A stretch of DNA of 64,000 nucleotides from Squalus acanthias (Eukaryota): the NCBI GenBank assembly GCA_030390025.1, contig CM059432.1:98768001-98832000 (forward strand), given 5' to 3'. Positions within the stretch are counted from its first letter, which is position 1. Each line of letters opens with the position of its first letter. The position numbers and the translations under genes were made by a program. The notes below the pieces were generated by a model. That model was given only the letters and a program-made list of their open reading frames with translations, was not told where the DNA came from and searched no databases. Shown one piece after another: positions 1,001 through 46,852 of this stretch.

Positions 1001-4000
1001 CCCCTCCAGCCCCGATCCATCCAGCCCCCCGATCATTACACACCCCGATCCATCCACCCGCCGATCCATCCACCCCCCGATCCATCCACCCCCCGATCCA
1101 TCCACCCCCCGATCCATCCACCCCCCGATCCATCCACCCCCCGATCCATCCACCCCCCGATCCATCTACCCCCGATCATTACACCCCCCGATCCATCCAC
1201 CCCCCGATCCATCCACCCCCTGATCCATCCACCCCCCGATCCATCCACCCCCCGATCCATCCACCCCCCGATCCATCCACCCCCCGATCCATCCACCCCC
1301 CGATCCATCCACCCCCCGATCCTTCCACCCCCCGATCCTTCCACCCCCCGATCCATCCACCCCCAATCCATCCAGCCCCAAATCCTCCCACCCCCGATCC
1401 ATCCACCCCCCGATCCATCCACCCCCCGATCCATCTACCCCCGATCATTACACCCCCCGATCCATCCACCCCCCGATCCATCCACCCCCTGATCCATCCA
1501 CCCCCCGATCCATCCACCCCCCGATCCATCCACCCCCCGATCATTACACCCCCCGATCCGCCCACTCCCCGATCCATCCACCCCCCGATCCGCCCACCCC
1601 CCGATCCATCCAGCCCCAAATCCATCCACCCCCCGATCCATCCACCCCACGATCTGCCCACCCCCGATCCATCCACCCCCCGATCCATCCACCCCCCGAT
1701 CCTTCCACCCCCCGATCCTTCCACCCCCCGATCATTACACCCCCCGATCCTTCCACCCCCCGATCATTACACCCCCCGATCCGCCCACCCCCCGATCCAT
1801 CCAGCCCCCGATCCGCCCACCCCCCGATCCATCCACCCCCGATCATTACACCCCCCGATCCATCCACCCCCGATCCATCCACCCCCCGATCCATCCACCC
1901 CACGATCTGCCCACCCCCCGATCCATCCACCCCCCGATCCTTCCACCCCCCGATCCTTCCACCCCCCGATCATTACACCCCCCGATCCTTCCACCCCCCG
2001 ATCATTACACCCCCCGATCCGCCCACCCCCCGATCCATCCAGCCCCCGATCCGCCCACCCCCCGATCCATCCACCCCCGATCCATCCACCCCCGATCCAT
2101 CCACCCCCGATCCATCCACCCCCGATCCATCCACCCCCGATCCATCCACCCCCGATCCATCCACCCCCGATCCATCCACCCCACGATCTGCCCACCCCCC
2201 GATCCATCCACCCCCCGATCCATCCACCCCCCGATCCATCCACCCCCGATCATTACACCCCCCGATCCATCCACCCCCGATCCATCCACCCCCCGATCCA
2301 TCCACCCCACGATCTGCCCACCCCCCGATCCATCCACCCCCCGATCCATCCACCCCCCGATCCATCCACCCCCCGATCCTTCCACCCCCCGATCCTTCCA
2401 CCCCCCGATCCATCCACCCCCAATCCATCCAGCCCCAAATCCTCCCACCCCCGATCCATCCACCCCCCGATCCATCCACCCCCCGATCCATCTACCCCCG
2501 ATCATTACACCCCCCGATCCATCCACCCCCCGATCCATCCACCCCCTGATCCATCCACCCCCCGATCCATCCACCCCCCGATCCATCCACCCCCCGATCA
2601 TTACACCCCCCGATCCGCCCACTCCCCGATCCATCCACCCCCCGATCCGCCCACCCCCCGATCCATCCAGCCCCAAATCCATCCACCCCCCGATCCATCC
2701 ACCCCACGATCTGCCCACCCCCGATCCATCCACCCCCCGATCCATCCACCCCCCGATCCTTCCACCCCCCGATCCTTCCACCCCCCGATCATTACACCCC
2801 CCGATCCTTCCACCCCCCGATCATTACACCCCCCGATCCGCCCACCCCCCGATCCATCCAGCCCCCGATCCGCCCACCCCCCGATCCATCCACCCCCGAT
2901 CATTACACCCCCCGATCCATCCACCCCCGATCCATCCACCCCCCGATCCATCCACCCCACGATCTGCCCACCCCCCGATCCATCCACCCCCCGATCCTTC
3001 CACCCCCCGATCCTTCCACCCCCCGATCATTACACCCCCCGATCCTTCCACCCCCCGATCATTACACCCCCCGATCCGCCCACCCCCCGATCCATCCAGC
3101 CCCCGATCCGCCCACCCCCCGATCCATCCACCCCCGATCCATCCACCCCCGATCCATCCACCCCCGATCCATCCACCCCCGATCCATCCACCCCCGATCC
3201 ATCCACCCCCGATCCATCCACCCCCGATCCATCCACCCCACGATCTGCCCACCCCCCGATCCATCCACCCCCCGATCCATCCACCCCCCGATCCATCCAC
3301 CCCCTGATCCATCCACCCCCCGATCCATCCACCCCCGATCCATCCAACCCCGATCCATCCACCCCCCGATCATTACACCGCCCGATCCTCCCACCCCCCC
3401 GATCCATCCACCCCCCGATGCATCCACCCCCCGATCCATCCACCCCCCGATCCATCCACCCCCCGATCCATCCACCCCCCGATCCATCCACCCCCCGATC
3501 CATCCACCCCCCGATCCATCCACCCCCCGATCCATCCACCCCCCGATCCATCCACCCCCCGATCCATCCACGCCCCGATCCATCCACCCCCCGATCCATC
3601 CACTCCCGATCATTACACCCCCCGATCCATCCACCCCCCGATCCATCCACCCCCCGATCCATCCACCCCCCGATCATTACACCCCCTGAGCCATCCACCC
3701 CCCGATCCATCCACCCCCTGATCCGCCCACCCCCGATCCATCCACCCCCTGATCCATCCACCCCCCGATCATTACACCCCCTGAGCCATCCACCCCCGAT
3801 CCGCCCACCCCCCGATCCATCCACCCCCCGATCCATCCACCCCCCGATCCATCCACCCCCCGATCCATCCACCCGCCGATCCATCCACCCCCGATCCATC
3901 CACCCCCCGATCCATCCACCCCCCGATCCATCCACCCCCGATCGTTACACCCCACGATCCATCCACCCCCCGATCCATCCACCCCCCGATCCATCCACCC

Positions 4001-5460
4001 CCTGATCCATCCACCCCCCGATCCATCCACCCCCCGATCCATCCACCCCCTGATCCATCCACCCCCTGATCCGCCCACCCCCCGATCCATCCACCCCCGA
4101 TCCATCCAACCCCGATCCATCCACCCCCCGATCATTACACCGCCCGATCCTCCCACCCCCCCGATCCATCCACCCCCCGATCCATCCACGCCCCGATCCA
4201 TCCACCCCCCGATCCATCCACTCCCGATCATTACACCCCCCGATCCTCCCACCCCCCGATCCATCCAACCCCGATCCATCCACCCCCCGATCATTACACC
4301 GCCCGATCCTCCCACCCCCCCGATCCATCCACCCCCCGATCCATCCACGCCCCGATCCATCCACCCCCCGATCCATCCACTCCCGATCATTACACCCCCC
4401 GATCCTCCCACCCCCCGATCCATCCACCCCCGATCATTACACCCCCCGATCCATCCACCCCCCGATCCATCCACCCCCGATCCATCCACCCCCCGATCCA
4501 TCCACTCCCGATCATTACACCCCCCGATCCTCCCACCCCCCGATCCATCCACCCCCGATCATTACACCCCCCGATCCATCCACCCCCCGATCCATCCACC
4601 CCCGATCCATCCACCCCCCGATCCATCCACCCCCCGATCATTACACCCCCTGAGCCATCCACCCCCCGATCCATCCACCCCCTGATCCGCCCACCCCCGA
4701 TCCATCCACCCCCTGATCCATCCACCCCCCGATCATTACACCCCCTGAGCCATCCACCCCCTGATCCGCCCACCCCCCGATCCATCCACCCCCCGATCCA
4801 TCCACCCCCCGATCCATCCACCCCCCGATCCATCCACCCGCCGATCCATCCACCCCCGATCCATCCACCCCCCGATCCTTCCACCCCCCGATCCATCCAC
4901 CCCCCGATCCATCCACCCCCCGATCCATCCACCCCCCAATCCATCCACCCCCCGATCCATCCACCCCCGATCCATCCACCCCCCGATCCATCCACCCCCC
5001 GATCCATCCACCCCCCGATCCATCCACCCCCTGATCCATCCACCCCCCGATCATTACACCCACCGATCCATCCACCCCCCGATCCTCCCACCCCCCCATC
5101 CATCCACCCCCGATCGTTACACCCCCCGATCCATCCACCCCCGATCGTTACACCCCCCGATCCATCCACCCCCCATCCATCCACCCCCCGATCCATCCAC
5201 CCCCCAATCGTTACACCCCCGATCCATCCACCCCCCGATCCATCCACCCCCCAATCCTCCGACCCCCCAATCGTTACACCCCCCGATCCTTCCACCCCCC
5301 GATTGTTACACCCCCGATCATTACACCCCCGATCCATCCACCCCCCGATCCATCCACCCCCCGATCCATCCACCCCCCGATCCTCCCACCCCCCGATCCA
5401 TCCACCCCCCGACCCATCCACCCCCCGATCGTTACATCCCCGATCCATCCACCCCCCAAT
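1000..5460. repeat. 16-bp minisatellite (CCCCCCGATCCATCCA and variants) with higher-order duplications
   Basis: Hundreds of units with variants GATCATTACA, GATCCTTCCA, GATCCGCCCA; variant patterns recur at a 1057-bp offset. Confidence 0.97.
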
Positions 5461-5828
5461 GCTCCAGCCCTGATCTTTCCACCCCCGATGCTCCGACCCT
5501 GATCCGTCTACTCCCTGATGCTCCGGTCCCGATCTTTCCACCCTCCGATGTTCCGGCCCAGATTCTTCCCTCTCCCCAATGCTCCTCCGGCCCCCGGCCC
5601 CCACCCGATCCCTCCTTCCCTCCTCTCTGCAGCCTACAGGCTTGCCCACCCACAGCCAGCCAGCCTCTCCATCTGACTGGCTGTGGGTGGGAAAGAGAGG
5701 TTTGAAATTAAAATCAGGCCCTGCCGTTAAATTCAGCATGGCCTGGGGGGAACCCATTCTTCCGGGTTTCCCGACCGCTTTCTAGCCCCCCGCTCCAAAC
5801 CTGCCTCCATAATAACATTCAGTCCATT

Positions 5829-16190: not shown

Positions 16191-17792
16191 CAACAACAAC
16201 TTGTATTTATAGAGCCTTTAACTTAGTAAAACGTCCCAAGGCGTTTCACAGGAGCGTTATAAAACAAGATTTGACACCAAGCCACATAAGGAGATATTCG
16301 GGTAGGTGAGGTCAGTTTTAAGGAGCGTCTTAAAGGAGAAAGTCAAGTCTAAAGGTAACAAAAGCATGGATGAGGGTTTCAGCAGCAGATGAGCTGAGGC
16401 AGGGGTAGAGTCGGGCGGTATTCCGGAGGTGGAAATAGGCGATCTTAGTGCTAGCAGGAAGTTTATTTCGGGGTCAAATATGAAACCAAGGTTGCGAACA
16501 GTCTGGTTTAGCCTCAGACAGATGCCAGGGAGAGGGATGGAGTTGATGGCTAGGGAACGAAGTTTGTGGCGGGGACTGAAGACCGTGGCTTCGGTCTTCC
16601 CAATATTTAGTTGGAGGAAATTTCTGCTCATCCAGTACTGGATGTCCGACAAGCAGTCTGACAACTTAGAGACTGTGGAGGGGGTCGAGAGAGGTGGTGG
16701 TGAGGTAGAGCGGGGTGTCATCAGCGTACATGTGAAAACTGATGCTGTGTTTTCGGGTGATGTCGCAGAGGGGCAGCATCTAGATGAGAAATAGGAGGGG
16801 GCCAAAGATAGATCCTTGGGGGACACCAGAGGTAATGATGCGGGAGCAGGAAGAGAAGCCATTGCAGGTGATTCTCTGGCTATAATTAGATACATAAGAA
16901 TGGAACAAGGCGAGTGCAGTCCCACCCAGCTTCACGTCAGTGGAGAGGCGTTGGAGGAGAATGGAGTGGTCAACCGTGTCAAAGGCTGCAGACAAGTCAA
17001 GAAGGACGAGGAGGGATAGTTTACCTTTGTCACAGTCACATAGGATGTCATTTGTGACTTTGCTAAGAGCCGATTCCGTACAGTGGCGGGGCGGAAACCT
17101 GATTAGAGGGATTCAAACATGGAGTTCCGGGAAAGATGGGCACGGATTTGGGAGGCGACAACACATTCAAGGACATTGGAGAGGAAAAACAGGTTGGAGA
17201 TGGGGCAGTAGTTAGCAAGGACGGAGGGTTCATGGGTTGGTTTTTTGAGGAGAGGGGTGAAGACGGCAGATTTGAAGGAGAGTGGGACAGTACCTGAGGA
17301 GAGAGAACCATTAACAATATCTGCTAACATGGGAGTCAGGAAAGGAAGTTGGGTGGTCAGCAGTTTAGTGGGAATAGGGTCAAGGGAGCAGGAAGTGGGT
17401 CTCATGGACAAGATAAGCTCGGAGAGGGTATGAGCAGAGATTGGAGAGAAACTGGAGAAAGATGCGAGTTCAAGGCTAGAGGAAGTTTGGCTCAGTGGGC
17501 TAGGGGAAGGGAGGGAAGTGGCAGGGGAAACTGGATCAGATGGTCTCAATCTTAGTGACAAAGAATTCCAAGAGCTCCTCGCACTTGTTAGAAGTGAGGG
17601 CAGAGGAGTGAGGGAGAGGGGTTTAAGAAGACGGTTTGCGGTAGAGAAAAGAAGCCGGGGGTTATCTTTGCATTCCAGAATGATGCTGGAATAGTGAGCA
17701 TATTTGGTAGAGGTGAGCAGGACCCAATAGTGCTTTGTGTGCTACAGCCAGATCTGGCGGTGAATGGCTAAACCCGTTGTCCGCCGCCATAT
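16190..17792 (-). mobile_element. L2 LINE, partial
   Basis: CSLDPIPTKLL, SAAFDTVDH, GVPQGSIFGPLLF; (GTT)n tail at the left end. Confidence 0.92.
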
Positions 17793-17794
17793 TT

Positions 17795-19486
17795 TTGTTT
17801 AAATTTGTTTAAGGGATGTGGGCGTCGCTGGCAAGGCCAGCATGTATTGGCCATCCCTAATTACCCTTGAGAAGGTGGTGGTGAGCCGCTTTCTTGACCT
17901 GCTGCAGTCCGTGTGGTGAAGGTACTCCCACAGTGCTGTTAGGTAGGGAGTTCCAGGATTTTGACCCAGCGATGATGAAGGATCAGCGATATACTTCTAA
18001 GTCAGGATGGAGTGTGAGTTGGAGGGGAACTTCGAGGTGGTGGTGTTCCCATGTGTCTGCTACCCTTGTCCTTCTAGGTAGATGTTGCAGGTTTGGGAGG
18101 TGCTGCTGAAGAAGCCTTGGCGAGTTGCTGCAGTGCATCTTGTAGATGGTACACACTGCAGCCACAGTACGCCAGTGGTGGGGGGAGTGAATGTTTAAGG
18201 TGGTGGATGGGGTGCCAATCAAGTGGGCTGCTTTGTCCTGGATGGCGTTGAGCTTCTTCAGTGTTGTTGGAGCTGCACTCATCCAGGCAAGTGGACAGTA
18301 TTCCATGACACTCCTTACTTGTGCCTTGTAGATGGTAGAAAGGCTTTGGGGAGTCAGGAGGTGAGACACTCGCCACAGAATACCTAGCCTCTGACTTGCT
18401 CTTGTTGCCACAGTATTTATGTGGCTGGTCCAGTTAAGTTTCTGGTCAACGGTGACCCCCAGGATGTTGATGGTGGGGGATTCGGCGATGGTAATGCCAT
18501 TGAATATATAGAAGCGGTGGTTAGGCTCTCGCTTGTTGGAGATAGTCATTGCCTGGCACTTCTGTGGCGCGAATATTACCTGCCACTTATCAGCCCAAGC
18601 CTGACCATCGTTCAAGTCTTGTTGCATGCGGTCATGGATTGCTTCATTATCTGAGGAGTTTTGAATGGCACTGAACACTGTGCAGTCATCAGCGAACATC
18701 ACCGTTTCTGACATTATGTTGGAGGGAAGGTCATTGATGAAGCAGCTGAAGATGGTTGGGCCTAGGACACTGCCCTGAGGAACTCCTGCAGCGATGTCCT
18801 GGGGCTGTGGTGATTGACCTTCAATCACCACAACCATCTTCCTTTGTGCTAGGTATGACTCCAGCAAGTGGAGAGTTTTCCCCCCGATTCATATTGACTT
18901 CAGTTTTACTAGGGCTCCTTGATGCCAGACTCGGTCAAATGCTGCCTTGATGTCAAGGGCAGTCACTTTCACTTCTGCTCTGGAATTCAACTCCTTTGTC
19001 CTTGTTTGGGCTAAGGCTGTATTGAGGTCGGGAGCCGAGTGCTCTTTACGGAACCCAAACTGGGCATCAGTGAGCAGGTTATTGGTGAGTAAGTGCTGCT
19101 TGATAGCACTGTTGATGACCCCTTCCATCACTGTGCTGATGATTGAGAGTAGACTGATGGGGCGGTAATTGGCTGGATTGGATTTGTCCTGCTTTTTGTG
19201 GACAGGACATATCTGGGCAGTTTTCCACATTGTTGGATAGATGCCAGTGTTGTAGCTGTACTGGAATAGCTTGGCTAGAGGCGCAGTTAGTTCTGGAGCA
19301 CAAGTCTTCAGCACAACAGCTGGGATGTTGTCAGGGCCCATAGGCTTTGCTATATCCAGTGCGCTCAGCCGTTTCTTGATATCACGTGGAATGAATCGAA
19401 TTGGCTGAAGACTGGCTTCTGTGGTGGTGGGGACCTCAGGAGGAGGCCAATATGAATCATCCACTCGGCACTTCAGGCTGAAGATA
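17795..19486 (-). mobile_element. 5'-truncated copy of the SINE-headed LINE family (see 35432)
   Basis: High identity to 37035-38733; [25 protein letters not shown]. Confidence 0.95.
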
Positions 19487-20303
19487 GTCATAGCCCTTTT
19501 CGGGCCACCCCAGATCAGGCGTATTCCCCAGATGTTCACCTTCAACTAAAGTTAGAGGTAGCTGAATCCTATAAGATGCTTAATTGGGTCTAAAGGTTCA
19601 GACTATCTCTCCCTAAAGGAAAGGAACATCCTGAAGATGTTACCGTCCTCCGGATAGCACTTTTAACAAGTTTAACTAGACTGTAACCTTCCGGATATTA
19701 TGAGGGTCCGGAATACCCCCCAGAATTCTGCAACTCCTTTGTGAAGAGTGTACAGAAATTGAGTTCGTGAGATTGATACAGAAATACTCTGTGAGACAAT
19801 TTTAAAAATATATAGATTTATTAAAGAACCAACATTTAGTTAACAGCTGGTATGGCAATCGCAACTTTAACCGTTCAAAATACAAATAGCTTACATTTCT
19901 TATCAGAGATCCTTATTCTCAAATCTTAACTTCGCTACATTTCCACACTTCTACTTATTTCTTAATCCAGAATATCCACCAAAATCAAACACCTTGATTA
20001 CCCGAAACTCAGAGTTGTAGGCCTAAAGAGTGGTTCTGAAGGCGAGAATCGCTTGCCTTTCCAGCAACTTCTGACTCTCTATCTGGAAAGCTCTATTTTT
20101 ATACCTTTTTTTAGTGGTTTATTCTTTGAAGTTTTCTGCTGATGTAAGCTAATTGTCTCTAGTGATTCTTTATTGAATTCTTTTCTATTCTTACTGTTAA
20201 TTCAGCTGTCAGCTTTCAGAATCCTGTCTGCTGTATAGGTGTTTCAAAAACTTATCATATCCTGGTTATTACAGATTTATCTCTTTGATGCCATTCTTTC
20301 ACA
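19485..20303 (-). mobile_element. LTR related to 27283-28497, last ~15 bp missing
   Basis: Minus strand starts TGTGAAAGAAT; TATA (GGTATAAAAA), AATAAA and R/U5 align with the 27283 LTR. Confidence 0.85.
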
Positions 20304-30269: not shown

Positions 30270-31007
30270 GTGTCACTGGCAAGGTTGTAATTTATTGCCC
30301 ATCCCTAGTTGTCCTTGAGAAGGTGATGGGTCTTCTTCTTGAACGCTGCTGTTCACATGGTGAAAGTGCTCCCACAGTGCAGTTAGGTAGGGAGTTCCAG
30401 GATTTTGCCCCAGCAACGGTAAAGGAACAGTGATATATATTCAAGTTGAGATAATGTGAGACTTGGAGGGGAATTTGGAGGTGATAGTGTTCCAATGCAT
30501 CTGCTGCCTTTGTCCTTCTAGGAGGTGGAGGTAATGGGTTTGGGAGTGGTGCTGAAGAAGCCTTGACGAGTTGCTGCAATGCATCCTGTAGATAGTACAC
30601 ACTGCAGCCATGGTACACCAGTGGTGGAGGGAGTGGATGTTTAAGCTGGTGGATGGAGTGTCAATCAAGCGGGCTGCTTTGCCCTGGATAGTGTTGAGCT
30701 TACTAAGTGTTGTTGCTGCTGAACCCATCTAGGCAAGTAGAAAGTATTCCATCATAATCCTGACTTGTGGCTTGTAGGAGAGGCTTCGTGGAGATAGTCG
30801 TAGTCATTGTCTGGCACTTATGTGGTGAGAATGTTACTTGCCACTTATCACCCCAAGCCTGGATGTTGTCCAAGTCTTGCTGCATGCGGGCATGGACTGC
30901 TTCATTATCTGATGAATTACCTGAACACTGTGCAATCATCAGCAAATAGCCCCATTTCTGACATTATGATAGAGGGAAGGTCATTGAGGAAACAGCTGAA
31001 GATAGTT
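30270..31007 (-). mobile_element. Truncated, internally deleted copy of the SINE-headed LINE family
   Basis: SDNEAVHARMQQDLDNIQAW, CTIYRMHCSNS and the shared 3' tail. Confidence 0.88.
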
Positions 31008-31806
31008 GGGCTAGAAATTCGGCTGTTTTGTTTTGAAATTGCCATCCATGCCACGTGCCCACCCTTTTGGTGAGGGTGGTAGGGTGGGCGTTCGGAGCGT
31101 GCGCTGGAAGTATGTAGAGTAGGCAGAACGTGACGTCAATCAGCGTGCAATGCTGATTTGATGCCCTGCTGCCATTTTCATCCTCAACCCTAGAGCTAAT
31201 GCCCTGTCTTAACCTTGTACAGATAAACACGCGTTCAGTAACAGCAAGGACCACTCCCCCCCACCACCAGCGTTATTTTAAGTGATCATCAACCAATCTC
31301 ATTAGTTGCTAATTAATTTCTAATGGGAATGTGTAAGTTTGTGGAAGTGTTTGGTGCTTTCTAGAGTTGTTTAAAGTTGGTGAGGTGACAGGGAGTGGAG
31401 AAGGCCTTCGTTCTGACTTCAAGGGTTCTGGTCAGACCACTTGCTCCCAGTCATGGGTGCTCTAGTTGTCATCCCCCTTGGCCTGCAGCATGACAGGAGG
31501 ATGGAACGGAGACAACAAAGAAAAGAACAAGCTTCTCGTAGAGGGGGAGGAAGAGGAAGAGGAAGAGGAGGAGGAGCAGGAGGAAGAGAGGAAGCAACCA
31601 GCACATCCAATCTCTGGCAGGGCTGTCTGTGATTGCCTCATTCGATTACGGTTTCACTGAACACAACCCAAAATCCCCATTGAACAACAATCACAGACCT
31701 TGCCATCCCTCTGTTCTGGACCATCACAGCATCCTCTTGGCCACAATGCTGAAACAAAAGCCACCACAAAAGAAATATTCTATCCAATATTACATAACAA
31801 AGTCAA

Positions 31807-34417
31807 CTAATAATCCCTGTGCATTCCTTTAGTGCCTGTCTTTGATGTGCCTTTGCCTGTCCTAGTGCTCCTACGGAGTGCTACCCCAGTGGCTGCAGCA
31901 TGGCTGGTGGAAGGCTGCTGACCTTCAATGGGGGGAGACTGCAGATGGCCTTGCAGGATGTCCTCCAGCAGCTCTGGGCCCAGAAGACCCGGCTGCGGAC
32001 TGCACCACCTTGCCATGGGCGGCAGTGTCAGCAGTCTGGGCTGGCTGACAGGCAACATCAAAGGCTCTGGCGGAGTGGCAGTGGTGGGAGGACAAATGAT
32101 GTCATCCTGGGAGAGGACAGCAGGTTCATGCTCCACAGAGCCACTGCCACTCCCCCGGGGCGGCGCCTCAGCAATCCTAGTAATCTGTTGGAGGACAGAT
32201 TGCTGGACTGCTGTGAAACACTGCAAGTCTCTTTCCACACTAGTAAACGCAGCCACGATAGGAGCAGTCTGAGCTTGCATGGCAGAAGTCTGAGCTTCCA
32301 CTGCAGCACTTATGCCGCAGTGGAAGCTGAGACATCAGCCATCAGATGCTGCATCATGGTTGGGTCCACAAGTGCACAAATGGAATTGCCCACCGTTTCC
32401 ATGCTGGAAATCATGGGCTCCAAGCTCTTCACATAGCCCTGTGCAAGGTTGGTGCCAGACTCTTCCGTGCTCCTTGACATTGCACTCTGGCTTTCTGGTG
32501 GGCCTGCCAATGCACCAAGCATTTCATTGTGCATACCCATCAGCCTCCTTTTGTAGCCCACCCCATCGACGTCCTCATCTGAGTCCTGTTCAGCAAAACT
32601 TGTGTGCGACCTTGCTCTCCACGGAGCTGGCATCTGCACTACCCTTTGCCCCTGCCCTGGCTGCAGGCCACTCATGCCTGGTGTCTCACCACATGTAAAT
32701 CCCGCCTCTATCCTATCCTCTAAAGTAGGCAGAGTGTCAGTATCTGAGCTGGTGGCTGTGAGTGTGAAATTGAGTGACGGAGCTGTTTCATCATCATCAA
32801 TGTCTTGTTACTCTTCAATTTCCTGCTCCTCCACCAGTGCCTGGCCAGTTGGCAGTTCTTGGCTATCTGAACGGAGAAAGGTACAAGGATAAGGTTGTAG
32901 TGAGGGGAGGCAGGGGAAAGCAAGAGGTGCATGCTTACACCATGTGCAGCTTGTAAATCAGAAGAGATTGTGGTATGAGGGGGAAGTGGAATGTGCGAAG
33001 AAGGATTATATATGGGGATAATGTCATCTGATATTGTTTCAGTCCCGCCGCTGTCCACAGGCTTAGCGATTGCCCTCCGAATAATGACCAACTCCATCTC
33101 CTCCATAGGGGTTAAAACATGCAGGCATGCCTGTCCCCTGCTGGTTAGGTCCTGCTTCCTCCGGTTGTGAGCCACCTTGTCCTGCAAGGTAAAGGGAAGT
33201 GTGTGAGTGATGTAACACTTTCTCTTACTACTGTTCGGACCTGGAGAATTATGAATTAGCTTAACAATGACAGACAAGGATGCGATCAATAAAATTGGTC
33301 TTTATTCACACTATAGTTCAAAATTTGAGTGTGCATAGAAGAAACTTTGGCAATAAATTCAAAGAACTCTCGGCAATAAATATACCTGCAACTTATTAAT
33401 TCAAAGTATATAAAAGTGCCCCTTTAACAATATCTAAGCTTATATCTGATTCCCATACATACTCCTTCATCTCTGGGTCATCTCCCTCCTGTGCTGTCTT
33501 CGGTGTTCTTCTTCTGTGTTCTCTGATGTTCTTTCTTCGGAAAACTTGAAAACTCCCGCCCCTGGGTTATCGTAAATCACACTCTGCCTCCCTCTGACAG
33601 GTCAGTCCCACTCCAAGCCTTCCCTGATTGGAGTTCCTTCCGCATGACACGTTCCTGTTCCTGTGAGATGTAGGGGGGCGGGACTTCCTTGTCAATCATT
33701 GTCCAGGTGGCCTCTCAAACAAAGAACACATACTGACCACCATTTTGTGTTTTCACAAACAAAGAACACATACTGACCACCATTTTGTGTTTTCACAAAC
33801 AAAGAACACATGCTGATTTCTTACATTTTAAATCCGTCCGTTATAATCTTACAATTCGTTCGCAATTTCGATCTCCACACGGTAGCAGCGGTTTTATTAC
33901 ACTTTTCAGAATCTTACAGTGAGTGTGGTGCAATGTGCTTGGGTGATATGCCTGTCATGGTTGAATAGCTGGCAGTGTGTTCAAGCTGTGAGGTGTGGGT
34001 GTGAGGCTTGCAGCAGTGGTAAGTGTGTGCAATTGAAGTGAAGCTATGAATGTGAGGTATGAGTCATGTTTGGTAGAGATTGTTGGTAGGTGAGTAATGG
34101 GGTGTGGTTCAGTGAGCAGTGTGTGAGGTTAGTGGTGCAGATGTTGGGATATTGCATTTGAAAATTAATTCACTGACCTTGGCCACTCGTGTGAGGTCAT
34201 TAAACTTCTTCCTGCACTGAGTCGAGGTCCTCAGGGCTACACTGCTGGCATTGACCACGAAGGCTATCTGCTCCCTTTGCCTTTTCCGAGTTTGCCTGGA
34301 GGGTCCCCATGCCCCCTTTGGAAACAGGACCTCTCTCCTCCTGTCCACCTTCTGCACAAAGGCTTCCAGTGCTGCATTGGATAACCTTGGAGCATGCTCT
34401 CTCCTCTGTTGTGCCAT
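31807..34417 (-). pseudogene. Harbinger Myb/SANT-like DNA-binding gene, 3 exons, frameshifted
   Basis: MAQQRREHAPRLSNAALEAFV...QCRKKFNDL; donor AAG|GTCAGT (exon ends 34178); acceptor TTGCAG|GAC (33181). Confidence 0.85.
33211..33918 (-). mobile_element. Solo LTR (708 bp) in Myb intron 1
   Basis: TGTAA...TTACA ends, 4-bp TSD GTGA, 40-bp tandem repeat at 33716-33810; orientation inferred from minus-strand AATAAA and CCAAT. Confidence 0.88.
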
Positions 34418-35176
34418 CAGCAGTACTTTTTCCTGCTCAGACTCTGTTCCCCAGCCAGAAAGCACCTCCCGTTTAAGAAGTGCAGACTGCCTTTAAGAAG
34501 TGCAGGCTAGCTTTAATTGGTGCTAGCCTCGCACAAACTTGGACCCTCTGCTGACAGTGCAGCCACTCAGTGCTGGGCTGCACACCACAATCATGTTAAT
34601 CACCAGGCAGCACGACGTTGGCATGCTGCCTGCATTACTTTGAACGTGCACCCACTTTCTGGGGCAATTGAATTTCCAGCCACACATGTTTTATGCTGGA
34701 AATTCAATAACATTCATATGGGCATTTTGACAGGGAATGTAATGAATAATTAATTGAAGTTTGGGATGCAGAGGCTATTCCTTTTGCTTTATATATAATT
34801 TATTTTTGAGATTTATAAGTCATAGCACAACATCCAGTTCACATTATTTTTTAGCAGTAGGTTAAGCAAAATCTCACATGAAACCAATTAAATAATGTGG
34901 GTGTGATAATTGCATCTACCATGTTGATTAAATAGTGTAAATCATTTTTAATGGTAGCACTTGCTGATGAATGAGAATTCCATCATTCTTTTTAAGCAAA
35001 TAACAAACATTTATGTACTGATCCAATTTGGTAGTAATGGACCTGTAAGTGCCGAAGAACTGGACAAGCTCACAAAGGTGTTCTCCCAGACATAAAAATA
35101 TTCTCGGTGCATTCTTTTGTATGTTTAACTGAAGTATGAATATCCATATCACATTCATATTTGTAACTTTGTAACT

Positions 35177-35431: not shown

Positions 35432-38400
35432 CCGCATAGTGGTAATGTCACTGGGCTAGTAATCCAGAGGCCTCGACTAATGATCCAGCGATGTGAGTTC
35501 AAATCCCACCACGGCAGCTGGGGAATTTAAATTCAGTTAATTAAATAATCTGGAATAAAAAGCTAGTATCAGTAATGGTAACCATGAAACTATCGGATTG
35601 ACATAAAAACCCATCTGGTTCACTAATGTCCTTTAGGAAAGGAAATCTGCCATCCTTACCTGGTCTGGCCTATATGTGACTCCAGACCCACAGCAATGTG
35701 GTTGACTCTTAACTGCCCTCTGAAATGGCCTAGCAAGCCACTCAGTTGTAACAAACCGCCACGAATCACAATAATAAGAATGAAACCGGATGGACCACCC
35801 GGCATCGACCTCGGCACCGGCTTCGGACACGGAAACGGCACACCCAGCCCAGTCGACCCTGCAAAGTCCTCCTCACCAACATCTGGGGATTGTGCCAAAA
35901 TTGGGCGAGCTGTCCCACAGACGAGTCAAACAACAGCCTGACATAGTCATACTCACAGAATCATACCTTCCAGCCAATGTCCCAGAATCCTCCATCACCA
36001 TCCCTGGGTATCTCCTGTTCCACCGGCAGGACAGACCCACCAGAGGTGGCGGCACAGTGGTATACAGTCGGGAAGGAGTGGCCCTGGGAGTCCTCAACAT
36101 TGACTCTGGACCCCATGAAGTCTCATGGCTTCAGGTCAAGCATTGGCAAGGAAAGCTCCTGCTGATTACCACATAGCGCCCTCCCTCAGCTGATGAATCA
36201 GTACTCCGCCATGTTGAACACCACTTGGAAGAAGCACTGAGAGTAGCAAGAGCACAGAATGTACTCTGGGTGCGGGACTTCAATGTCCATCACCAAGAAT
36301 GGCTCGGTAGCACAACTACTGACCGAGCTGGCCGAGTCCTGAAGGACATAGCTGCCAGTCTGGGCCTGCAACAGGTGGTGTGAGAACCAACACGAGGGAA
36401 AAACCTACTTGACCTCATCCTCACCAATCTACCTGTCGCAGATGCATCTGTCCACAACAGTATTGGTAGCAGTGACCACCGCACAGTCATTGTGGAGACA
36501 AAATCACGTCTTCACACTGAGGACACCCTCCATCGTGTTGTGTGGCCCTACCACCGTGCTAAATGGGATAGGTTCAGAACAGATCTAGCAGCTGAAAACT
36601 GGGCATCCATGAGGCGCTGTGGGTCATCAGCAGCAGCAGAATTGTATTCCACCACAATCTGTAACCTCATGGCCCGGCATATCCCTCACTCTACCATTAC
36701 CATCAAGCCAGGGGACCAACCCTGGTTCAATAAGGAGTGTCGAAGAGTATGCCAGGAGCAGTACCAGGTGTACCTAAAAGTGAAGTGCCAACCTGGGGAA
36801 GCTGCAACACCGGACTTACATGCATGCTAAAAAGCGGAAGCGGCATGCTATAGACAGGGCTAAGCGATCCCACAATCAACGGGTCAGATCAAAGCTCATG
36901 CAGTCCTGCCACATCCAGTCATGAATGGTGGACCATTAAACAACTAACGGGAGGAGGAGGCTCCATGAATATCCCCATCCTCAATGATGGTGGAGCCCAG
37001 CATGTGAGTGCAAAAGACAAAGCTGAAGCGTTTGCAACCATCTTCAGCCTGAAGTGCCGAGTGGATGATCCATATTGGCCTCCTCCTGAGGTCCCCACCA
37101 TCACAGATGCCAGTCTTCAGCCAATTCGATTCACTCCACGTGATATTAGGAAATGGCTGAGCGCACAAGATACAGCAAAGGCTATGGGCCCCGACAGCAT
37201 CCCGGCTATCGTGCTGAAGACTTGTGCTCCAGAACTAGCCGTGCCTCTAGTCAAGCTGTTCCAGTACAGCTACAACACTGGCATCTATCCGACAATGTGG
37301 AAAATTGCCCAGGTCCGTCCTGTCCACAAAAATCAGGACATTTTCAATCTGGCCAATTACTGTCCCATCAGTCTACTCTCAATCATCAGCAAAGTGATGG
37401 AATGTGTCATCGACAGTGCTATCAAGCGGCACATACTCACCAGTAACCTGCTCACTGATGCCCAGTTTGGGTTCCGCAAAGACCACTTGGCTCCCAACCG
37501 CTTTACAGCCTTGGTCCAAACATGGACAAAGGAGTTGAATTCCAGAGGTGAGGTGAAAGTGACTGTTCCAGACATCAAGGTAGCATTTGACGGAGTTTGG
37601 CATCAAGGAGCCCTAGTAAAACTGAAGTCAATGGAAATCGGGGGGGAAAACTCTCCACTTGCTGGAGTCATACCTAGCACAAAGGAAGATGGTTGTGGTG
37701 ATTGAAGGTCAATCATCGCAGCCCCAGGACATCGCTGCAGGAGTTCCTCAGGGCAGTGTCCTAGGCCCAACTATCTTCAGCTGCTTCATCAATGACCTTC
37801 CCTCCATCATAAGGTCAGAAGTGGGGATGTTCGCTGATGACTGCACAGTGTTCAGTGCCATTCACAACTAATCAGATAATAAAATAGTCCATGCCCACAT
37901 GCAACAAGACCTGGATGATGGTCAGGCTTGGGCTGATAAGTGGCAGGTAACATTCGCACCACAGAAGTGCCAGGTAATGACTATCTCCAACATGCGAGAG
38001 TCTAACCATCGCCCTTTGACATTCAACGGCATTACCATCGCCGAATCCCCCACCATCAACATCCTGGGGGTCACCATTGACCAGAAACTTAACTGGACCA
38101 GCCACATAAATACTGTGGCAACAAGAGCAGGTCAGAGGCTAGGTATTCTGCGGTGAGTGTCTCACCTCCTGACTCCCCAAAGCCTTTCCACCATCTACAA
38201 GGCACAAGTAAGGAGTGTGATGGAATATGCTCCACTTGCCTGGATGAGTACAGCTCCAACAACACTCAAGAAGTTTGACACCATCCAGGACAAAGCAGCC
38301 CGCTTGATTGGCATCCCATCCACCACCTTAAACATTCACTCCCTCCATCACCGGTGTACCGTGGCTGAAGTGTGTACCATCTACAAGATGCATTGCAGCA

Positions 38401-38733
38401 ACTCGCCAAGGCTTATTCAGCAGCACCTCCCAAACCCACAACCTCTTCCACCTCAAACGACAAGGGCAGCAGGCACATGGGAACACCACCACCTCCAAGT
38501 TCCCCTCCAAGTATCACACCATCCTGACTTAGAAGTATATCGTTGATCCTTCATCATCACTTGGTCAAAATCCTGGAACTCCCTCCCTAACAGCACTGTG
38601 GGAGTACCTTCACCACACGGACTGCAGCGGTTCAAGAAGGCGGCTCACCACCACCTTCTCAAGGGCAATTAGGGATGGGCAATAAATGCTGGCCTTGCCA
38701 GCAATGCCCACATTCCATAAACGAATAAAAAAA
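35432..38733 (+). mobile_element. Near full-length CR1/L2-group LINE with a tRNA-like SINE head and no ORF1
   Basis: A-box-like CCGCATAGTGG (35432-35442), B box GAGTTCAAATCCC (35495-35507), EN+RT coding region, A-rich tail. Confidence 0.88.
35860..38546 (+). pseudogene. APE endonuclease + reverse transcriptase ORF with stops and frameshifts
   Basis: PDIVILTESYL, RQDRPTRGGG, DFNVHH, LDLILTN, SDH; then [25 protein letters not shown]. Confidence 0.92.
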
Positions 38734-38744
38734 GTATTCAAAGT

Positions 38745-39825
38745 AATGAAGGAACAGCTTACAAACGTGGATGGGCAAAATTTGTTTGACAATACAATTG
38801 GAACACCTTTAAAGGCATAACATTTAGGATGATTCGCTGAGTCAAATTCATGGTCACTGGGTCAAGTTCCTGGAAGTCCCTACCTAATAGCATTGTGGGA
38901 GTACCTTCACCACATAGAATGCAGCAGTTCAAGAAGAAGGTCCACCACCACCTTTGCCGGTAGGCATGGGCAATAAATTCTGGCCTTGCTAGTGATGCCC
39001 ATAGCCCCAGAATGCATTTTTAAAAATTATTATAAATACATACTTAGAATCAGAACCTCAGACTAAACAAGCGTGACCCCAAATTAATTAACAAACTAAA
39101 CCTCTAAAGAGAAAGATGATAAGGTTCATTGGGATTACAATAAAAACACATAAAAACACATTAAAAGTTGCAATGGGAGACCTGTAAAAAAGCATAGCTG
39201 CAGAGGCAAAAGGTAACAGTACGAATTGTTTAAGTACTACACCAGTAAGTGGGCAGTCAAAGAAGAAGTGAGAATCATAAAAGATACAGCAGACTAGGAA
39301 GAGGAGGATGAGTTTAAGTTAGTAAATATTCTGAATGTTTATTTTGTCCAAGTATTCACATGGGAAGATATTAGTCATGTATCCTCCCCATTAACTTAGT
39401 CAAAATTAATAACTTCAATATAAATGAGTTGCAAGGCCTAGACAGGCCAAAAACACTCATAATAAATAAATCCCCAGGATTAGATGGCATTGATCCCATA
39501 GTGCTGAGACTAGTGAGGGATTTGTGAGGCAATAACAATAATAATGAGAATCACTAGATGCTAGGAATGGGTTTCTATGACACAATATTCTAAAAGGGTG
39601 ACAAAACAGACACAAAGAACCACAGATTCATTACTCATACTTCATTCCATGGAAAACAATACAATGAAATATTAGGAGTAAATTTGAGGATTATCTGTAC
39701 AAAAACACGCTAGTAAACAACAGTCGATATGGATTCAGAAAGGGGAGATACTATCTGAACAACATCCTTCACTTTTTTGAGGAAGTCACAATACAAATAC
39801 ACTGTGGAAAGTCCTACAACAGGGC
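38745..39825 (+). mobile_element. Old degenerate CR1 ORF2, with a short LINE/SINE tail inserted at ~38845-39020
   Basis: KSPGLDGIDPIVLR, YGFRKGR, FFEEVT remnants. Confidence 0.75.
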
Positions 39826-40548: not shown

Positions 40549-42988
40549 AAGATTGACCATAACATGGTTGAATTCCATATTCAATTAGAGGGTGAGAAGG
40601 TTGGATCTCAAACAAGCGTGCTAAGCTTGAATAAAGGTGACTATGAAGTTATGCGAGCCGAATTGAGTAGAGTGGATTGGGAAAATAGATTAAAGGGTAA
40701 GACGACACATGATCAGTGGTGTACATTCAAGGAGTTATTTTACAACTTCCAAAAAAAATATATTCCACTGAAAAGAAAAGGGTGTAGAAGAAAGGACAGT
40801 CATCCGTGGCTAAGTAAAGAAATTAAGGATAGTATTCGACTAAAAACAAGGGCATATAAGGTAGCGAAATCTAGTGGGAGGACAGAGGATTGGGAAAACT
40901 TTAAAAGGCAGCAAAAAATAACAAAAAGATTGATTAAGAAAGGGAAGATAGATTATGAAAGTAAATTAGCAAAAAATATAAAAACAGATAGTAAGAGTTT
41001 TTATAGTTATATAAAAAGAAAAAGGGTGGCTAAAGTAAATGTTGGTCCCTTAGAGGATGAGACCGGGAAATTAATGGTGGGAAATATGGAGATGGCAAAA
41101 ACACTGAATGAATATTTTGTATCAGTCTTTACAGTAGAGGACACTAAGAATATCCCAACACTGGACAAACAGGGGGCTATAGGGGGAGAGGAGCTAAACA
41201 CGATCAAAATCACTAAGGAAGTGGTACTCGGTAAAATAATGGGACTCAAGGCGGATAAATCACCTGGACCTGATGGCTTACATCCTAGAGTCTTGAAGGA
41301 AGTGGCGGTAGGGATTGTAGATGCATTGGTAATAATTTTTCAAAACTCCCTGGATTCCGCTAAGGTCCCGGCAGACTGGAAAACTGCTAATGTAACACCC
41401 TTATTTAAAAAGGGCAGTAGACAGAAGGCTGGTAACTATAGACCGGTTAGCCTAATATCTGTGGTAGGTAAAATTTTGGAGTCCATTATTAAGGAAACAG
41501 TAACAGGACATTTGGATAATCATAATTTAATAGGATAAAGTCAGCATGGTTTTACGAAGGGGAAGTCATGTTTGACAAATTTGCTGGAGTTCTTTGAGGA
41601 AGTAACATATAGAGTGGATAAAGGGGAACCAGTGGACGTAGTGTATTTAGACTTCCAAAAGGCATTTGACAAGGTGCCACACAAAAGATTATTGCTTAAG
41701 GTAAAAAATCACGGGATTGGGGGTAATATTCTGGCATGGATAGAGGATTGGCTATCTAACAGAAAGCAAAGAGTTGGGATAAATGGTTCATTCTCAGACT
41801 GGCAATCAGTAACTAGTGGTGTTCCACAGGGGTCAGTGCTGGGTCCCCAACTCTTCACAATCTATATTAACGATTTGGAGGAAGGGACCAAGTGTAACAT
41901 ATCAAAATTTGCAGATGATACTAAGATGGGAGGGAAAGTAGTGAGTGAGGAGGACATAAAAAACCTGCAAGGGGACATAGACAGACTAAGTAAGTGGGCA
42001 GAGATTTGGCAGATGGAATACAACACTGGAAAGTGTGAGGTGATGCACTTTGGCAGGAAAAATCCTAGAGCAATTTATTATCTTAATGGCAAGAAACTGG
42101 AGAGTACTGAAGTGCAAAGGGATCTGGGGGTCCTGGTGCACGAAACTCAAAAGGTTAGTATGCAGGTGCAGCAAGTGATTAAGAAGGCAAATGGAATGTT
42201 GGCTTTCATTGCTAGGGGGATAGAATATAAAAATAGGGAGGTATTGCTTCAGTTGTACAAGGTATTGGTGAGACCGCACCTGGAATACTGCATACAGTTT
42301 TGGTGTCCTTACTTAAGGAAAGACATCCTTGCTCTCGAGGCAGTGCAAAAAAGGTTCACTCGGTTAATCCCGGGGATGAGGGGGTGGTCATATGAGGAGA
42401 GGTTGGGTAGATTGGGACTCTACTCATTGGAGTTCAGAAGAATGAGAGGCGATCTTATTGAAACATATAAGATTGTGAAGGGGTTGGATCGGGTGGATGC
42501 GGGGAGGATGTTCCCGATGACGGGTGAGACTAGAACTAGGGGACATAGTCTTAGAATAAGGGGCTGCTCTTTCAAAACTGAGATGAGGAGGAACTACTTC
42601 ACTCAGAGGGTGGTAGGTCCATGGAATATGCTGCCACAAAAAGCTGTAGAAGCTACATCATTAAATAAATTTAAAACAGAAATAGACAGTTTCCTAGAAG
42701 TAAAGGGCATTAAGGGTTACGGGGAGCGGGCAGGAATTTAGACATGAGTCTAGGTTCGGATCAGTCATGGCCCTGTGGGTAGTGGAGCGGGCCCAGGGAC
42801 TGTGTAGCCTGATTCTGCTCCTATTTTGTGTGTGCAATTCTGTTAGATGCAGGAGATGGTTCTGTGATAGTAGATAGTAGATTGGCGGTTAGGATCAGAT
42901 CAGCCATGATCTTATTGAATGGTGGAGCAGGCTCGAGGGGCCGATTGGCCTACTCCTGCTCCTATTTCTTATGTTCTTATGTTCTTAT
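40549..42988 (+). mobile_element. Young CR1 LINE, truncated at the end of the endonuclease
   Basis: Continuous ORF2 frame; (TTCTTATG)n tail. Confidence 0.96.
40564..42741 (+). pseudogene. CR1 ORF2 RT, open except for one TAA at 41536-41538
   Basis: ORFs 40564-41538 and 41572-42741 share a frame (NLIG*SQHGF). Confidence 0.93.
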
Positions 42989-44779
42989 TGCACGACACTC
43001 ACTGACATTCTTCCCTTCCTCTTGCAGGAGAAGTTGGCGCGCAACTGGAGGCAGCAGAGTCTAACCAGAGAGGGAGAGGTGGCCTGCATGTTCTAACCCC
43101 TATGGAGGAGACGGGGCTGGGCTGGCCATTATGGGAAGGGCCATTGCTGAGGCCGAGGCCACCAGCGATTGAAGATAAGAGTATCCGCATACCCAATCCT
43201 CCTTCTCTCATCACACTCAGAGGGTTGTGAATCTTTGGAATTCTCTATCTGAAAGGGTTGTGGATGCTGAGTCATTGAGTATGGGCTGAGATAGATAGAT
43301 TTTTAGACTCTAGGGGAATCAAGGGATATGGAGATCGGGCGGGAAAGTGGAGTTGAGGTCGATGATCAGCCATGTTCTAATTGAATGGCGGAGCAGGCTC
43401 GAAGGGTCGTATGGCCTACTCCTGCTCCTAATTCTTATATTCTTATGTTCGCCCTCATCCCAAAATCTCTTCTGATTGAGAAGCTGCCAATGGTGGAAGC
43501 ATGCACATCTTACTTTCTCCTCTCCGCTCACCACAATCCTTTCAGATACCCAAGAGCTGCAACCTTCCCAGGCAGTGGAGGAAGAACAAGAAGACTGTGA
43601 GGATGACGAGGTACCATCACTCAATCTCACAGTTGCAGGCACCAGTTCAGATACTGACACTGCGTGTAATTTAGAGGATAGGATAAAGGTGGGATCTGTC
43701 TGTGGTGAGACACCGGGCACAAGTGCACTGCAGCCAGGAGAATGAGGTTGCATACTAGTTTTGCTACAGAGGATTCCAATGATGACTTTGATGGGCCAGG
43801 CTACAGAAGAAGGCTGATGGGTGTACACACCCAAATGCTTGGTGCACTGGAAAGCTTGCCAGAAAGCCTGCGTTCAATATCAAGGAGCATGGAGGAGTCA
43901 GGCAGCAACTTGACACAGGGCTTTGCGCAGAGCTTGAAGCCCATTCTTTCCAACGTGGAATGGGTGGCTACCTTCAACAGCACACCATGGAACCAACCCT
44001 GCTGCAGCATCTGGTGGCCGATGTCTCAGCTTCCATTGCAGCACACACAGCATCTACCCAATGTCTGAGTGCCGCAGTGGAAGCTCACCTGCTGTCATGC
44101 AATCACAGCTTGCTGCCATGGAAGCTCAGACTGCTGCCATCATGGCCATGCATACCAGTGTGCAAAGGAGCTTCCAGGGCATCACAGCACTCCAGCAATC
44201 TGGCCTCCTCCTGAGAGCCCTTCTCCCCCTCCTGCTCCTCCCTCTTCTAGCAGCTTGTCCTGCTATGCGTGGCCTCTGCTCATTCTCCCAGTCATGCTCA
44301 ATGTCAAGAGAAAACCCTAATAGGCCACCCATGTCTGGAAGCAACTGATTCACCAAAAATGTACTTCAGCACCAGCCACACCACTCCCTGTAGACTATTG
44401 AAAATTTTAACAAGTATGGCAAAGCATCCAAAATGCATAGAATAGCAGCAACTGCCGGAAGAAATAATCCAGCAACTAACCTGTAAGTAGTTGATGATAC
44501 CTTTAAATAGCCTGGTGGGGGGTCCTTCATGTTGTTGAATGCTTGTTTAGCTGTGGGAGGTTAAGAAAGTGCATAGGCTGGAGTGTGGAGTTCCAAAGTG
44601 TCAACGTTGTTTGCCGATATGATCTACCTGCTCTGCATGCTGCAAGTGGTCTTTAAGTGCATGCGGGCTACCCCCTTTACAAATATGGCACCCGGCAAAC
44701 TTGCCATTGGAATTGTGTGTGCATGTCGTGGTCGCCATTTTGGTAGTTTAAGAGGCTTCGTAGTTTTGTCCCTGTTGGT

Positions 44780-45680: not shown

Positions 45681-45884
45681 TCATTGTCATTGGAGGATCT
45701 GGTAGATTACATAGAATGTACAGCACAGAAATAGGCTAACTGATCTATTATGATATTTATACTCCACACAAGCCCCCTCTCACTCTAATTACTAAAAGAC
45801 TTCTGATAATACCTGCCCTTTAAGCTGAAGCAGGCATTTGAAGCCTGTAGCAGCGCACTATTTCCCATCGACAAATGGGTGAGC

Positions 45885-46852
45885 CAATAATCTTCAGCTG
45901 CTTCATCAATGACCTTCCCTCCATCATAAGGTCAGAAGTGGGGATGTTCCCTGATGACTGCACAGTGTTCAATTCCAGTCACAACTCCTCAGATAATGAA
46001 GCCGTCCATGCCCGAATGCAACAAGACCTGGACAACATTCAGGCTTGGGCTGATAAGTGGCAAGTAACATTCGCACCACACAAGTCCAGGCAATGACCAT
46101 CTCCAACAAGAGAAAATATAACCACCTCTCCTTGACATTCAGTGGCATTACCATCATCAAATCCCCCACCATCAACATCCTGGGGGTCACCATTGACCAG
46201 AAACTTAACTGGACCAGCCACAGAAATACTGTGGCTACAAGAGCAGGTCAGAGGCTGGGTATTCTGCAGTGAGTGCCTCACCTCCTTACTCCCTAAAGCC
46301 TTTCCACCATCATCAAGGCACAAGTTAGGGGCGTGATGGAATACTCTCCACTTGCCTGGATGAGTGCAGCTCCAACAACACTCAAGAAGCTCGACACCAT
46401 CCAGTACAAAGCAGTCTGCTTGATTGGCACCCCATCCACCACCTTAAACATTCACTCCCTCCACCACTGGCGCACTGTGGCTGCAGTGTGTACCATCTAC
46501 AAGATACACTGCAGCAACTCGCCAAGGCTTCTTTGGCAGCACCTCCCAAACCCGCGATCTCTTCCACCTAGAAGGATAAGGGCTGCAGGCGCATGAGAAC
46601 ACCACCACCTCCAAGTTCCCCTCCAAGTCACACACCATCCTTACTTGGAAATATATCGCCGTTCCTTCAGTGTCGCTGGGTCAAAATCCTGGAACTCCCT
46701 ACCGAACAGCACTGTGGGAGTACCTTCACCACATGGACTGCAGCGGTTCAAGAAGGCGGCTCACTACCACCTTGTTCAAGGGAAATTAGGAATGGGCAAT
46801 AAATGCTGGCCTTGCCAGCAATGCCCACATCCCATAAACGAATAAAAAAAAT
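45885..46852 (+). mobile_element. 5'-truncated copy of the SINE-headed LINE family
   Basis: High identity to 37765-38733, including the tail. Confidence 0.94.

Follow-up and report, generated by a model that had tools for sequence, protein, structure and literature searches.

Layout of the element in the dogfish window

The stretch of DNA analysed here, called the window, comprises 64,000 nucleotides (nt) of Squalus acanthias contig CM059432.1 (98,768,001 to 98,832,000 of the forward strand, assembly GCA_030390025.1); positions are counted from its first letter. On the plus strand at 35434..38733 it contains a near full-length, inactivated copy of an elasmobranch Zenon, a long interspersed nuclear element (LINE) with a family length of about 3.3 kb. 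The copy is 95.2% identical to the family majority, a sequence of 3314 nt built from 32 copies, and lacks the first 10 nt. It opens with a tRNA-derived head (35434..35517), for which tRNA-Ser(GCT) was the nearest of the two host tRNA types compared. The 5' clipping ends inside the A box. Thus, only a remnant (35434..35442) is present, short of its first two letters; full-length members have the box intact and open with GGG about 8 nt ahead of it. The B box, GAGTTCAAATCCC, lies at 35495..35507. Both assignments in this copy follow the usual box consensus. The body at 35518..35749 is of the type found in short interspersed nuclear elements (SINEs). It is common to the SINEs of this genome and to all seven elasmobranch Zenon consensuses, and it is putatively the Deu domain of SacSINE1. 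Head and body together measure about 315 nt and end at 35749; a stop codon at 35749-35751 is directly followed by the long frame.

This single frame (35752..38672, plus strand) has 973 codons and is open in the family majority, with the first methionine at residue 287. In the window copy it is split into 4 segments with 5 in-frame stops, i.e. the copy is dead. A short ATG-started frame in another phase (35780..35926, plus strand; 48 codons in the majority) overlaps the start of the long frame; the ATG at 35780 reads ATA in about 30% of the copies. The endonuclease motif begins near 35863, and an APE-type endonuclease domain extends over approximately 35863..36480; Pfam detected it in the sister copy L046 and not in the fragments of the window copy. 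The reverse transcriptase domain, approximately 37331..38078, was recognized as RVT_1 in three fragments of the window copy itself. The 3' end at 38637..38733 is common to SINEs and consists of the last 11 codons, the stop codon (38670-38672), the 3' untranslated region (UTR) with an AATAAA at 38681-38686, and a short A-tail reaching 38733. Between head and frame neither a SINE tail nor a target-site duplication (TSD) is present. A preliminary description made from the letters alone had seen a SINE-like head with a B box running straight into the endonuclease and reverse transcriptase region, and the window sequence bears this out. The A-box-like sequence it reported exists here as a remnant only, the box itself being incomplete.

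The junction of head and frame as a family structure

A 301-nt query across the junction gave 4322 first-look candidates in the 3.7-Gb genome. Forty of these were scored: all 40 cover nearly the whole 301 nt, and 39 are located outside the window at 94-96% identity. Thirteen of the 39 fetched loci extend from head start to poly-A and, if internal indels are disregarded, measure 3.1-3.3 kb. The sequences that flank them upstream show no relationship except for other repeats and one pair of loci, L005 and L012. Because selection by the junction was to be avoided, two junction-independent samples were seeded from either side of it. A 22-mer at the body end had 5214 exact matches; among the first 30 loci, 15 continue with the frame, and in the other 15 the body is joined to the 3' tail. 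For a 20-mer taken where the endonuclease begins, there were 6186 exact matches. Of the first 30 loci here, 16 have their 5' end no more than a few bases from the family +1, one further copy has a head with a deletion, and 13 break off at scattered points of head or leader, from nt 100 to nt 409; one duplicated locus accounts for two of these 13. Six of these 30 loci are the same places as in the body-end sample. Apart from the duplicated pair, no alternative shared 5' region was next to the frame in the 30, and none of them had an open reading frame 1 (ORF1), in keeping with the earlier view that the family has no ORF1-bearing form. As 17 of 30 carry the head, we estimate that at least about 3500 copies possess head and frame start. 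The junction of head and frame is a family structure, not a chance insertion, and the family is as abundant as had been supposed.

Copies are about 93-97% identical to the majority sequence, and the full-length copies end in an A-tail as does the window copy. Every copy examined was broken, the best one by 3 stops. The proposal to count copies within a single TSD yielded nothing: 31 copies retain both ends, and the longest match between their flanks had a mean of 5.0 nt, compared with 4.6 nt in mismatched pairs. The copy L082 (70% identical) was considered as a separate subfamily and rejected; it is a lone old copy.

That the frame codes for protein was borne out at the level of the family. 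In the majority of 32 copies one frame of 973 codons is open, and it directly adjoins the body. L046, the sister copy with the least disrupted frame, matched PF03372 (Exo_endo_phos, E 3.5e-10), PF14529 (Exo_endo_phos_2, E 7e-14) and RVT_1 (E 3.3e-34) in Pfam; a comparison with the PDB gave distant L1 and R2 matches only. Selection was examined in 130 aligned pieces (225.6 kb), after dropping 11 loci which had been fetched twice or were duplicated. Rare non-CpG variants had a ratio of non-synonymous to synonymous changes (dN/dS) of 1.0, as expected after insertion. Variants above 10% frequency had a dN/dS of 0.19-0.41 and contained no stops; in the smaller set of 32 copies the ratio for shared variants was 0.4-0.9, a weak signal. 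Of the 4 non-CpG variants that are frequent in the leader, 3 are synonymous with respect to the long frame, and cross-species differences, inspected by eye, are confounded by CpG decay. The low dN/dS and lack of stops in shared variants indicate that a functional protein was maintained in the head-carrying lineages that did the copying, the frame having been under purifying selection there.

The first 104 nt of the family majority are identical to SquAca_Zenon-1, and the lengths are 3314 and about 3317 nt. Because 5' end and length agree, the comparison identifies the element as the elasmobranch CR1-Zenon whose consensus Stuart et al. (2026; PMC13343379) give as supplementary data. This answers the earlier question whether the family was already catalogued. 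Like CR1-Zenon the element has a single frame for endonuclease and reverse transcriptase, no ORF1 and a poly-A tail. Canonical CR1/L2 elements are marked by an esterase ORF1, or by grouping with elements that have one, and by a microsatellite tail; the element departs from them by its poly-A tail, by an identity of 27% to the canonical CR1 of the same window and by its separate clade: in a quick tree, which included no named Zenon, it stood apart from that CR1 and with other relatives (100% support in the SH-like approximate likelihood ratio test). With tRNA-derived SINEs it shares the 5' head with A and B boxes and the absence of an internal terminator for RNA polymerase III (Pol III); at 3.3 kb and with a coding frame it is not short and non-coding as they are.

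According to the accessible part of the paper, Zenon occurs in five elasmobranchs, hagfish and coelacanth, all members lack ORF1 and have poly-A tails, the vertebrate Zenons are not monophyletic, and in the five species the frame is kept at 84% identity or more (PMC13343379). The missing ORF1, which the preliminary description had considered unusual, is therefore common to Zenons at large. All seven elasmobranch consensuses (SquAca_Zenon-1, -2 and -3 and the CarCar, RhiTyp, ScyCan and HypSab_Zenon-1 consensuses) open with the head, yet the first 400 letters of the hagfish and coelacanth consensuses contain none, the coelacanth start being of low confidence (PMC13343379, supplement as available). 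Inspection of the first 400 nt by eye shows that the consensuses of white shark, whale shark, catshark and stingray and the three of dogfish begin with A and B boxes, the spacers differing. When about 1000 CR1-group consensuses were screened over their first 400 nt for three body words and three B-box 10-mers, matches were confined to the seven elasmobranch rows. Using blastn, the head found no match in 94 non-shark relative loci, of which many are contigs without 5' flank and most are distant; ARAGORN reported no tRNA in 25 such loci. Rfam likewise gave none in 14 relative loci, an insensitive test because an included shark copy also gave no tRNA. The nearest non-shark relative with a 5' flank is T-rich.

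The words tRNA, promoter, polymerase, Deu and translation do not occur in the main text of Stuart et al. as available to us, nor in the preprint (PMC13343379). A whale shark preprint, in its accessible part, names CR1-Zenon once (10.1101/443036). A description of a tRNA-headed or Pol III-transcribed Zenon was not found in the literature searched, a search to which Repbase, Dfam and most subscription papers did not belong. The combination that has gone unremarked is that of a coding strand free of terminators with a tRNA head conserved in sharks and rays.

Two observations concern database entries related to the family. The shark proteins P0011, P0026, P0036, P0042 and P0045, named as ordinary genes, hold pieces of the LINE frame at 56-87% identity (P0052 at 37%); these six entries are annotation artefacts or exonised copies. 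Contigs from prokaryote genome bins, several of them of bivalve symbionts (L180-L193), encode LINE proteins of eukaryote type and are likely host DNA in bins.

Which polymerase transcribes the element

The Rfam tRNA match of the head is below threshold (20.2 bits compared with a gathering score of 29; E 0.2), and ARAGORN found no tRNA in the window. The head nevertheless aligns in register with the host tRNA-Ser(GCT) with a z of 5.6-6.9 against shuffles, and with tRNA-Arg with a z of 1.5-2.0; the comparison covered these two types and was built to find such likeness. The 5' end of the family is sharp and in register with +1 of tRNA-Ser(GCT). Hairpins corresponding to the anticodon and variable arms are retained, and by eye the acceptor stem cannot be paired. 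Folds of four heads were no better than shuffles, except for one head with a z of -1.8. As for the host genes, contig G000:C26 contains at about 39.0-41.9 Mb (L297-L300) tandem arrays of a unit of about 1.62 kb, in which every unit carries a gene for tRNA-Ser(GCT) and the units checked also one for tRNA-Arg(TCG); these arrays make up most of the first 100 of 310 pattern matches.

Pol III is stopped in cells by TTTT, TCTTT, TATTT and TGTTT, according to the part of PMC8466645 at hand. The sense strand of the majority sequence contains 14 AAAA, 11 CCCC and 9 GGGG and not a single TTTT. When interrupted sites were included (T4, TnTTT, TTTnTT and TTnTTT), none was present in the 3.3 kb compared with 8.0 expected from base shuffling (0 of 1000 shuffles as low), 3.9 from first-order Markov resampling (P 0.018) and 3.9 from a synonymous-codon shuffle of the frame (P 0.008). 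A-runs were at expectation in the same tests. For TTTT alone, P was 0.017 by base shuffle and 0.027 with redrawn codons. Individual copies have 11 TTTT in 92.5 kb, each at a separate site. None of the 67 non-shark relatives with a coding match of at least 1.5 kb was free of TTTT (lowest ratio of observed to expected 0.55, median 1.06), and five of these that are equally T-poor hold 4-13 terminator-like sites. Within the window, the canonical CR1 contains 7 TTTT over 1857 nt, and four further LINE pieces contain 1-19. This control copy (40551-42988, plus strand) is young, 5'-truncated and 98-99% identical to other copies in the genome. One T-poor relative from the same clade, L181 (13-2664), has one TTTT in 2.65 kb and an ordinary number of interrupted T-runs; its 5' flank is missing.

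The tRNA-derived head and a majority sequence devoid of T-runs suggest that this protein-coding element is probably made by Pol III, as an autonomous LINE with one self-coding RNA of 3.3 kb starting at the head. In such a mechanism TFIIIC would bind the A and B boxes, and Pol III would read through the element to the first T-run in the flank. The single 3.3-kb RNA would serve as message for the endonuclease-reverse transcriptase and as the copied template. Being uncapped, it would have to be translated from a non-standard start, possibly a non-AUG codon after the body or by coupling to the short upstream frame. Target-primed reverse transcription is standard for CR1-group LINEs, and the protein would bind the 3' end of the RNA and insert it in this manner. 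ORF1 would not be needed; indeed L1-driven retrotransposition of Pol III transcripts proceeds without ORF1p, as the accessible part of Kroutter et al. (2009; PMC2666806) has it.

Several points weigh against this interpretation. The sense strand is T-poor (19.6%), and with codon use kept the lack of TTTT alone is only modestly rare (0 compared with 1.8 expected, P 0.11). The terminator test covered a single majority sequence from one genome; the consensuses of the other species were read over 400 nt. In a larger copy set a few TTTT sites recur (4 of 74 for the commonest, 3 of 88 for another). An AATAAA close to the tail is compatible with either polymerase, Pol II or Pol III (PMC8466645). The fold of the 5' 485 nt was no better than shuffles (z 0.65), and B box and spacer have decayed to the same extent among the copies (0.071 and 0.076), which is expected after insertion but lends no support. 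L005 and L012, on different contigs, have a common 5' truncation point (equivalent to window position 35566) and 62 nt upstream of it in common, a small exception to the single 5' end. This pair is a duplication or a minor chimeric subfamily. Other Zenons lack ORF1 and also lack the tRNA head (L180; PMC13343379, as far as available); therefore the head does not explain the loss of ORF1. Finally, an uncapped RNA of 3.3 kb with no in-frame methionine ahead of residue 287 would require an unusual route of translation.

The last difficulty is eased if two polymerases share the work, Pol III making the RNA which is copied and capped Pol II transcripts, which would arise by read-through from the host or at a cryptic promoter within the body, supplying the protein from the same or other copies. 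This would solve the cap problem and preserve the terminator depletion. The family is also covered over its whole length in four putative RNA runs, which as contigs without starts or strand were not used as evidence, and many copies reside inside host genes in the whale shark according to the accessible part of the preprint (10.1101/443036). Yet the frame would have no AUG under Pol II either, and purifying selection on it in head-carrying lineages is easier to understand if the copied RNA is the message. On balance we regard such a division of labour as unlikely.

Rather less probable still is that the head is a captured 5' UTR which now acts as Pol II promoter or RNA structure, with boxes and missing T-runs as leftovers or by-products of composition. 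LINEs are taken as Pol II transcripts (PMC5786205, in part), the poly-A tail and AATAAA would agree with this, the sense strand is T-poor, and the codon-preserving test of TTTT alone is not significant. However, it is T-runs specifically that are depleted, interrupted terminators among them, and neither the 67 relatives nor LINEs of the same genome show this. Furthermore, both boxes have persisted in five species of sharks and rays, and the 5' end coincides with the tRNA +1.

A giant non-autonomous SINE which acquired a LINE frame and is moved in trans by another LINE appears very improbable and is already largely refuted. It would suit the broken state of every copy examined (3 stops in the best) and the common internally deleted forms, but not a majority frame open over 973 codons with shared variants at a dN/dS of 0.19-0.41, nor its conservation in five species at 84% identity or more (PMC13343379, as available), nor the lack of a head-less parent among 30 unselected copies. 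For a truncated LINE nested by chance behind a SINE nothing speaks beyond the look of the single locus, and its probability is close to nil since the junction is common to thousands of copies and to the published consensuses of five species (PMC13343379, supplement in part), the genome-wide junction search and the unselected endonuclease-start sample having refuted it.

Elsewhere in the window, the three further truncated copies noticed at the outset were located at 17789..19488 (minus strand, 90.6% identity), 45884..46850 (plus strand, 89.5%) and 30276..31011 (minus strand, older, 81-83%), all of them 5'-truncated. An older tail fragment of the family (38847..39007, plus strand, 80%) lies just downstream of the window copy. 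Long C-rich tandem arrays occupy 263-5486, with a 21-nt unit in about 27 copies and a 16-nt unit in about 283 copies over 4.5 kb. Frames at 34109-34492 (minus strand) and about 43700-44350 presumably resemble the Myb/SANT-type proteins of Harbinger transposons.

Related SINEs and comparison with known systems

The preliminary description had imagined the element as a parent of a SINE sharing both its head and its tail. Such SINEs exist. They are about 430 nt long and non-coding, unlike the full 3.3-kb element with its selected frame, and they are putatively SacSINE1. One SINE junction, from the body end to the last 11 codons and the tail, has 155 exact matches; other junctions are each single, and internally deleted forms of the family are common. 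Twelve SINE copies differed from the LINE majority in the body at 3 positions past nt 60 and in the tail at 3 positions before the A-tail. Differences before nt 60 coincide with truncated copies. By these alignments the SINEs look like internal deletions of the LINE. A tree of 28 heads, mostly unresolved, did not separate those of SINEs and LINEs.

PMC5499810 reports SINEs of the SacSINE1 type in sharks, skate, chimaera and coelacanth; they have head, Deu body and tail in common, and L2 is assigned as their partner. Their presence in chimaera and coelacanth makes the head probably older than the head-bearing Zenon. Since SINEs of this type are also present in hosts for which a head-bearing Zenon is not known, capture of the head from an older SINE appears more economical than a LINE-first origin of Deu SINEs. 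Possibly a template switch in an ancestor of sharks and rays gave a Zenon LINE the head and body of a SacSINE1-type SINE already resident there, and this LINE would later have shed new SINEs through internal deletion. A more far-reaching proposal, which we consider doubtful, is that since the common ancestor of sharks and rays the element has been an autonomous Pol III retrotransposon translated without cap or AUG, with head and Deu body as promoter and translation leader, and that it gave rise by deletion to the Deu-type SINEs of jawed vertebrates. If true, the latter would explain the strong conservation of the SINE body.

Should Pol III indeed transcribe the element, a shark and ray LINE with several thousand copies would be a natural long Pol III message in need of an unusual translation start. 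Should Pol II do the work, there remains an unremarked chimeric 5' UTR in a catalogued family. The shark SINE partner is reassigned to Zenon, and the capture of a SINE promoter by a LINE would be shown. Further, the element offers a direct assay for the function of the highly conserved SINE body, which is an open question in the SINE literature (PMC5499810, PMC4824008; both in part).

The closest known elements are the elasmobranch Zenon LINEs of Stuart et al. (2026; PMC13343379), with which the single endonuclease-reverse transcriptase frame, the absent ORF1 and the poly-A tail agree. The available parts of that paper do not describe the head, the terminator depletion, the missing AUG or the link to SINEs. 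The Deu-SINEs SacSINE1, SacSINE1-CM and LmeSINE1 consist of a tRNA head, a conserved body and a LINE-derived tail, measure about 430 nt and are present in sharks and rays (PMC5499810, accessible part); the SINEs of this genome fit. In the literature as available they are non-coding, with an L2-type partner (L2-2_CM with 78.6% tail similarity, PMC5499810; 'CR1-4_DR-like', PMC3747384). In this genome, by contrast, a complete coding frame follows that head and body, and the tail of the SINEs is identified as the 3' end of Zenon with its last 11 codons.

Bipartite non-autonomous LINEs and derived SINEs (Bov-A/Bov-tA, RTE, Vingi, Ingi, R2) likewise combine LINE 5' and 3' ends by internal deletion (Kojima, 2018; PMC5786205, in part). 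In what is available of that paper, bipartite derivatives come from RTE, Ingi, Vingi and R2 only, are Pol II products, and a tRNA head is added later to the short form. In the shark, a CR1-group LINE makes the derivatives and the full coding LINE already has the head. It is treated as a rule that LINEs are coding and transcribed by Pol II, SINEs non-coding and transcribed by Pol III, and the same source says that SINEs are unable to encode protein (PMC5786205).

R2 is translated independently of a cap and from a non-AUG start. R2, RTE and Ingi with 5' ribozymes are single-frame LINEs whose RNA has no normal capped Pol II 5' end, and in this they may be likened to the element (PMC5786205, accessible part). 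They free their 5' end by self-cleavage from another transcript, whereas the shark Zenon possesses a tRNA-type promoter module and a coding strand which avoids terminators.

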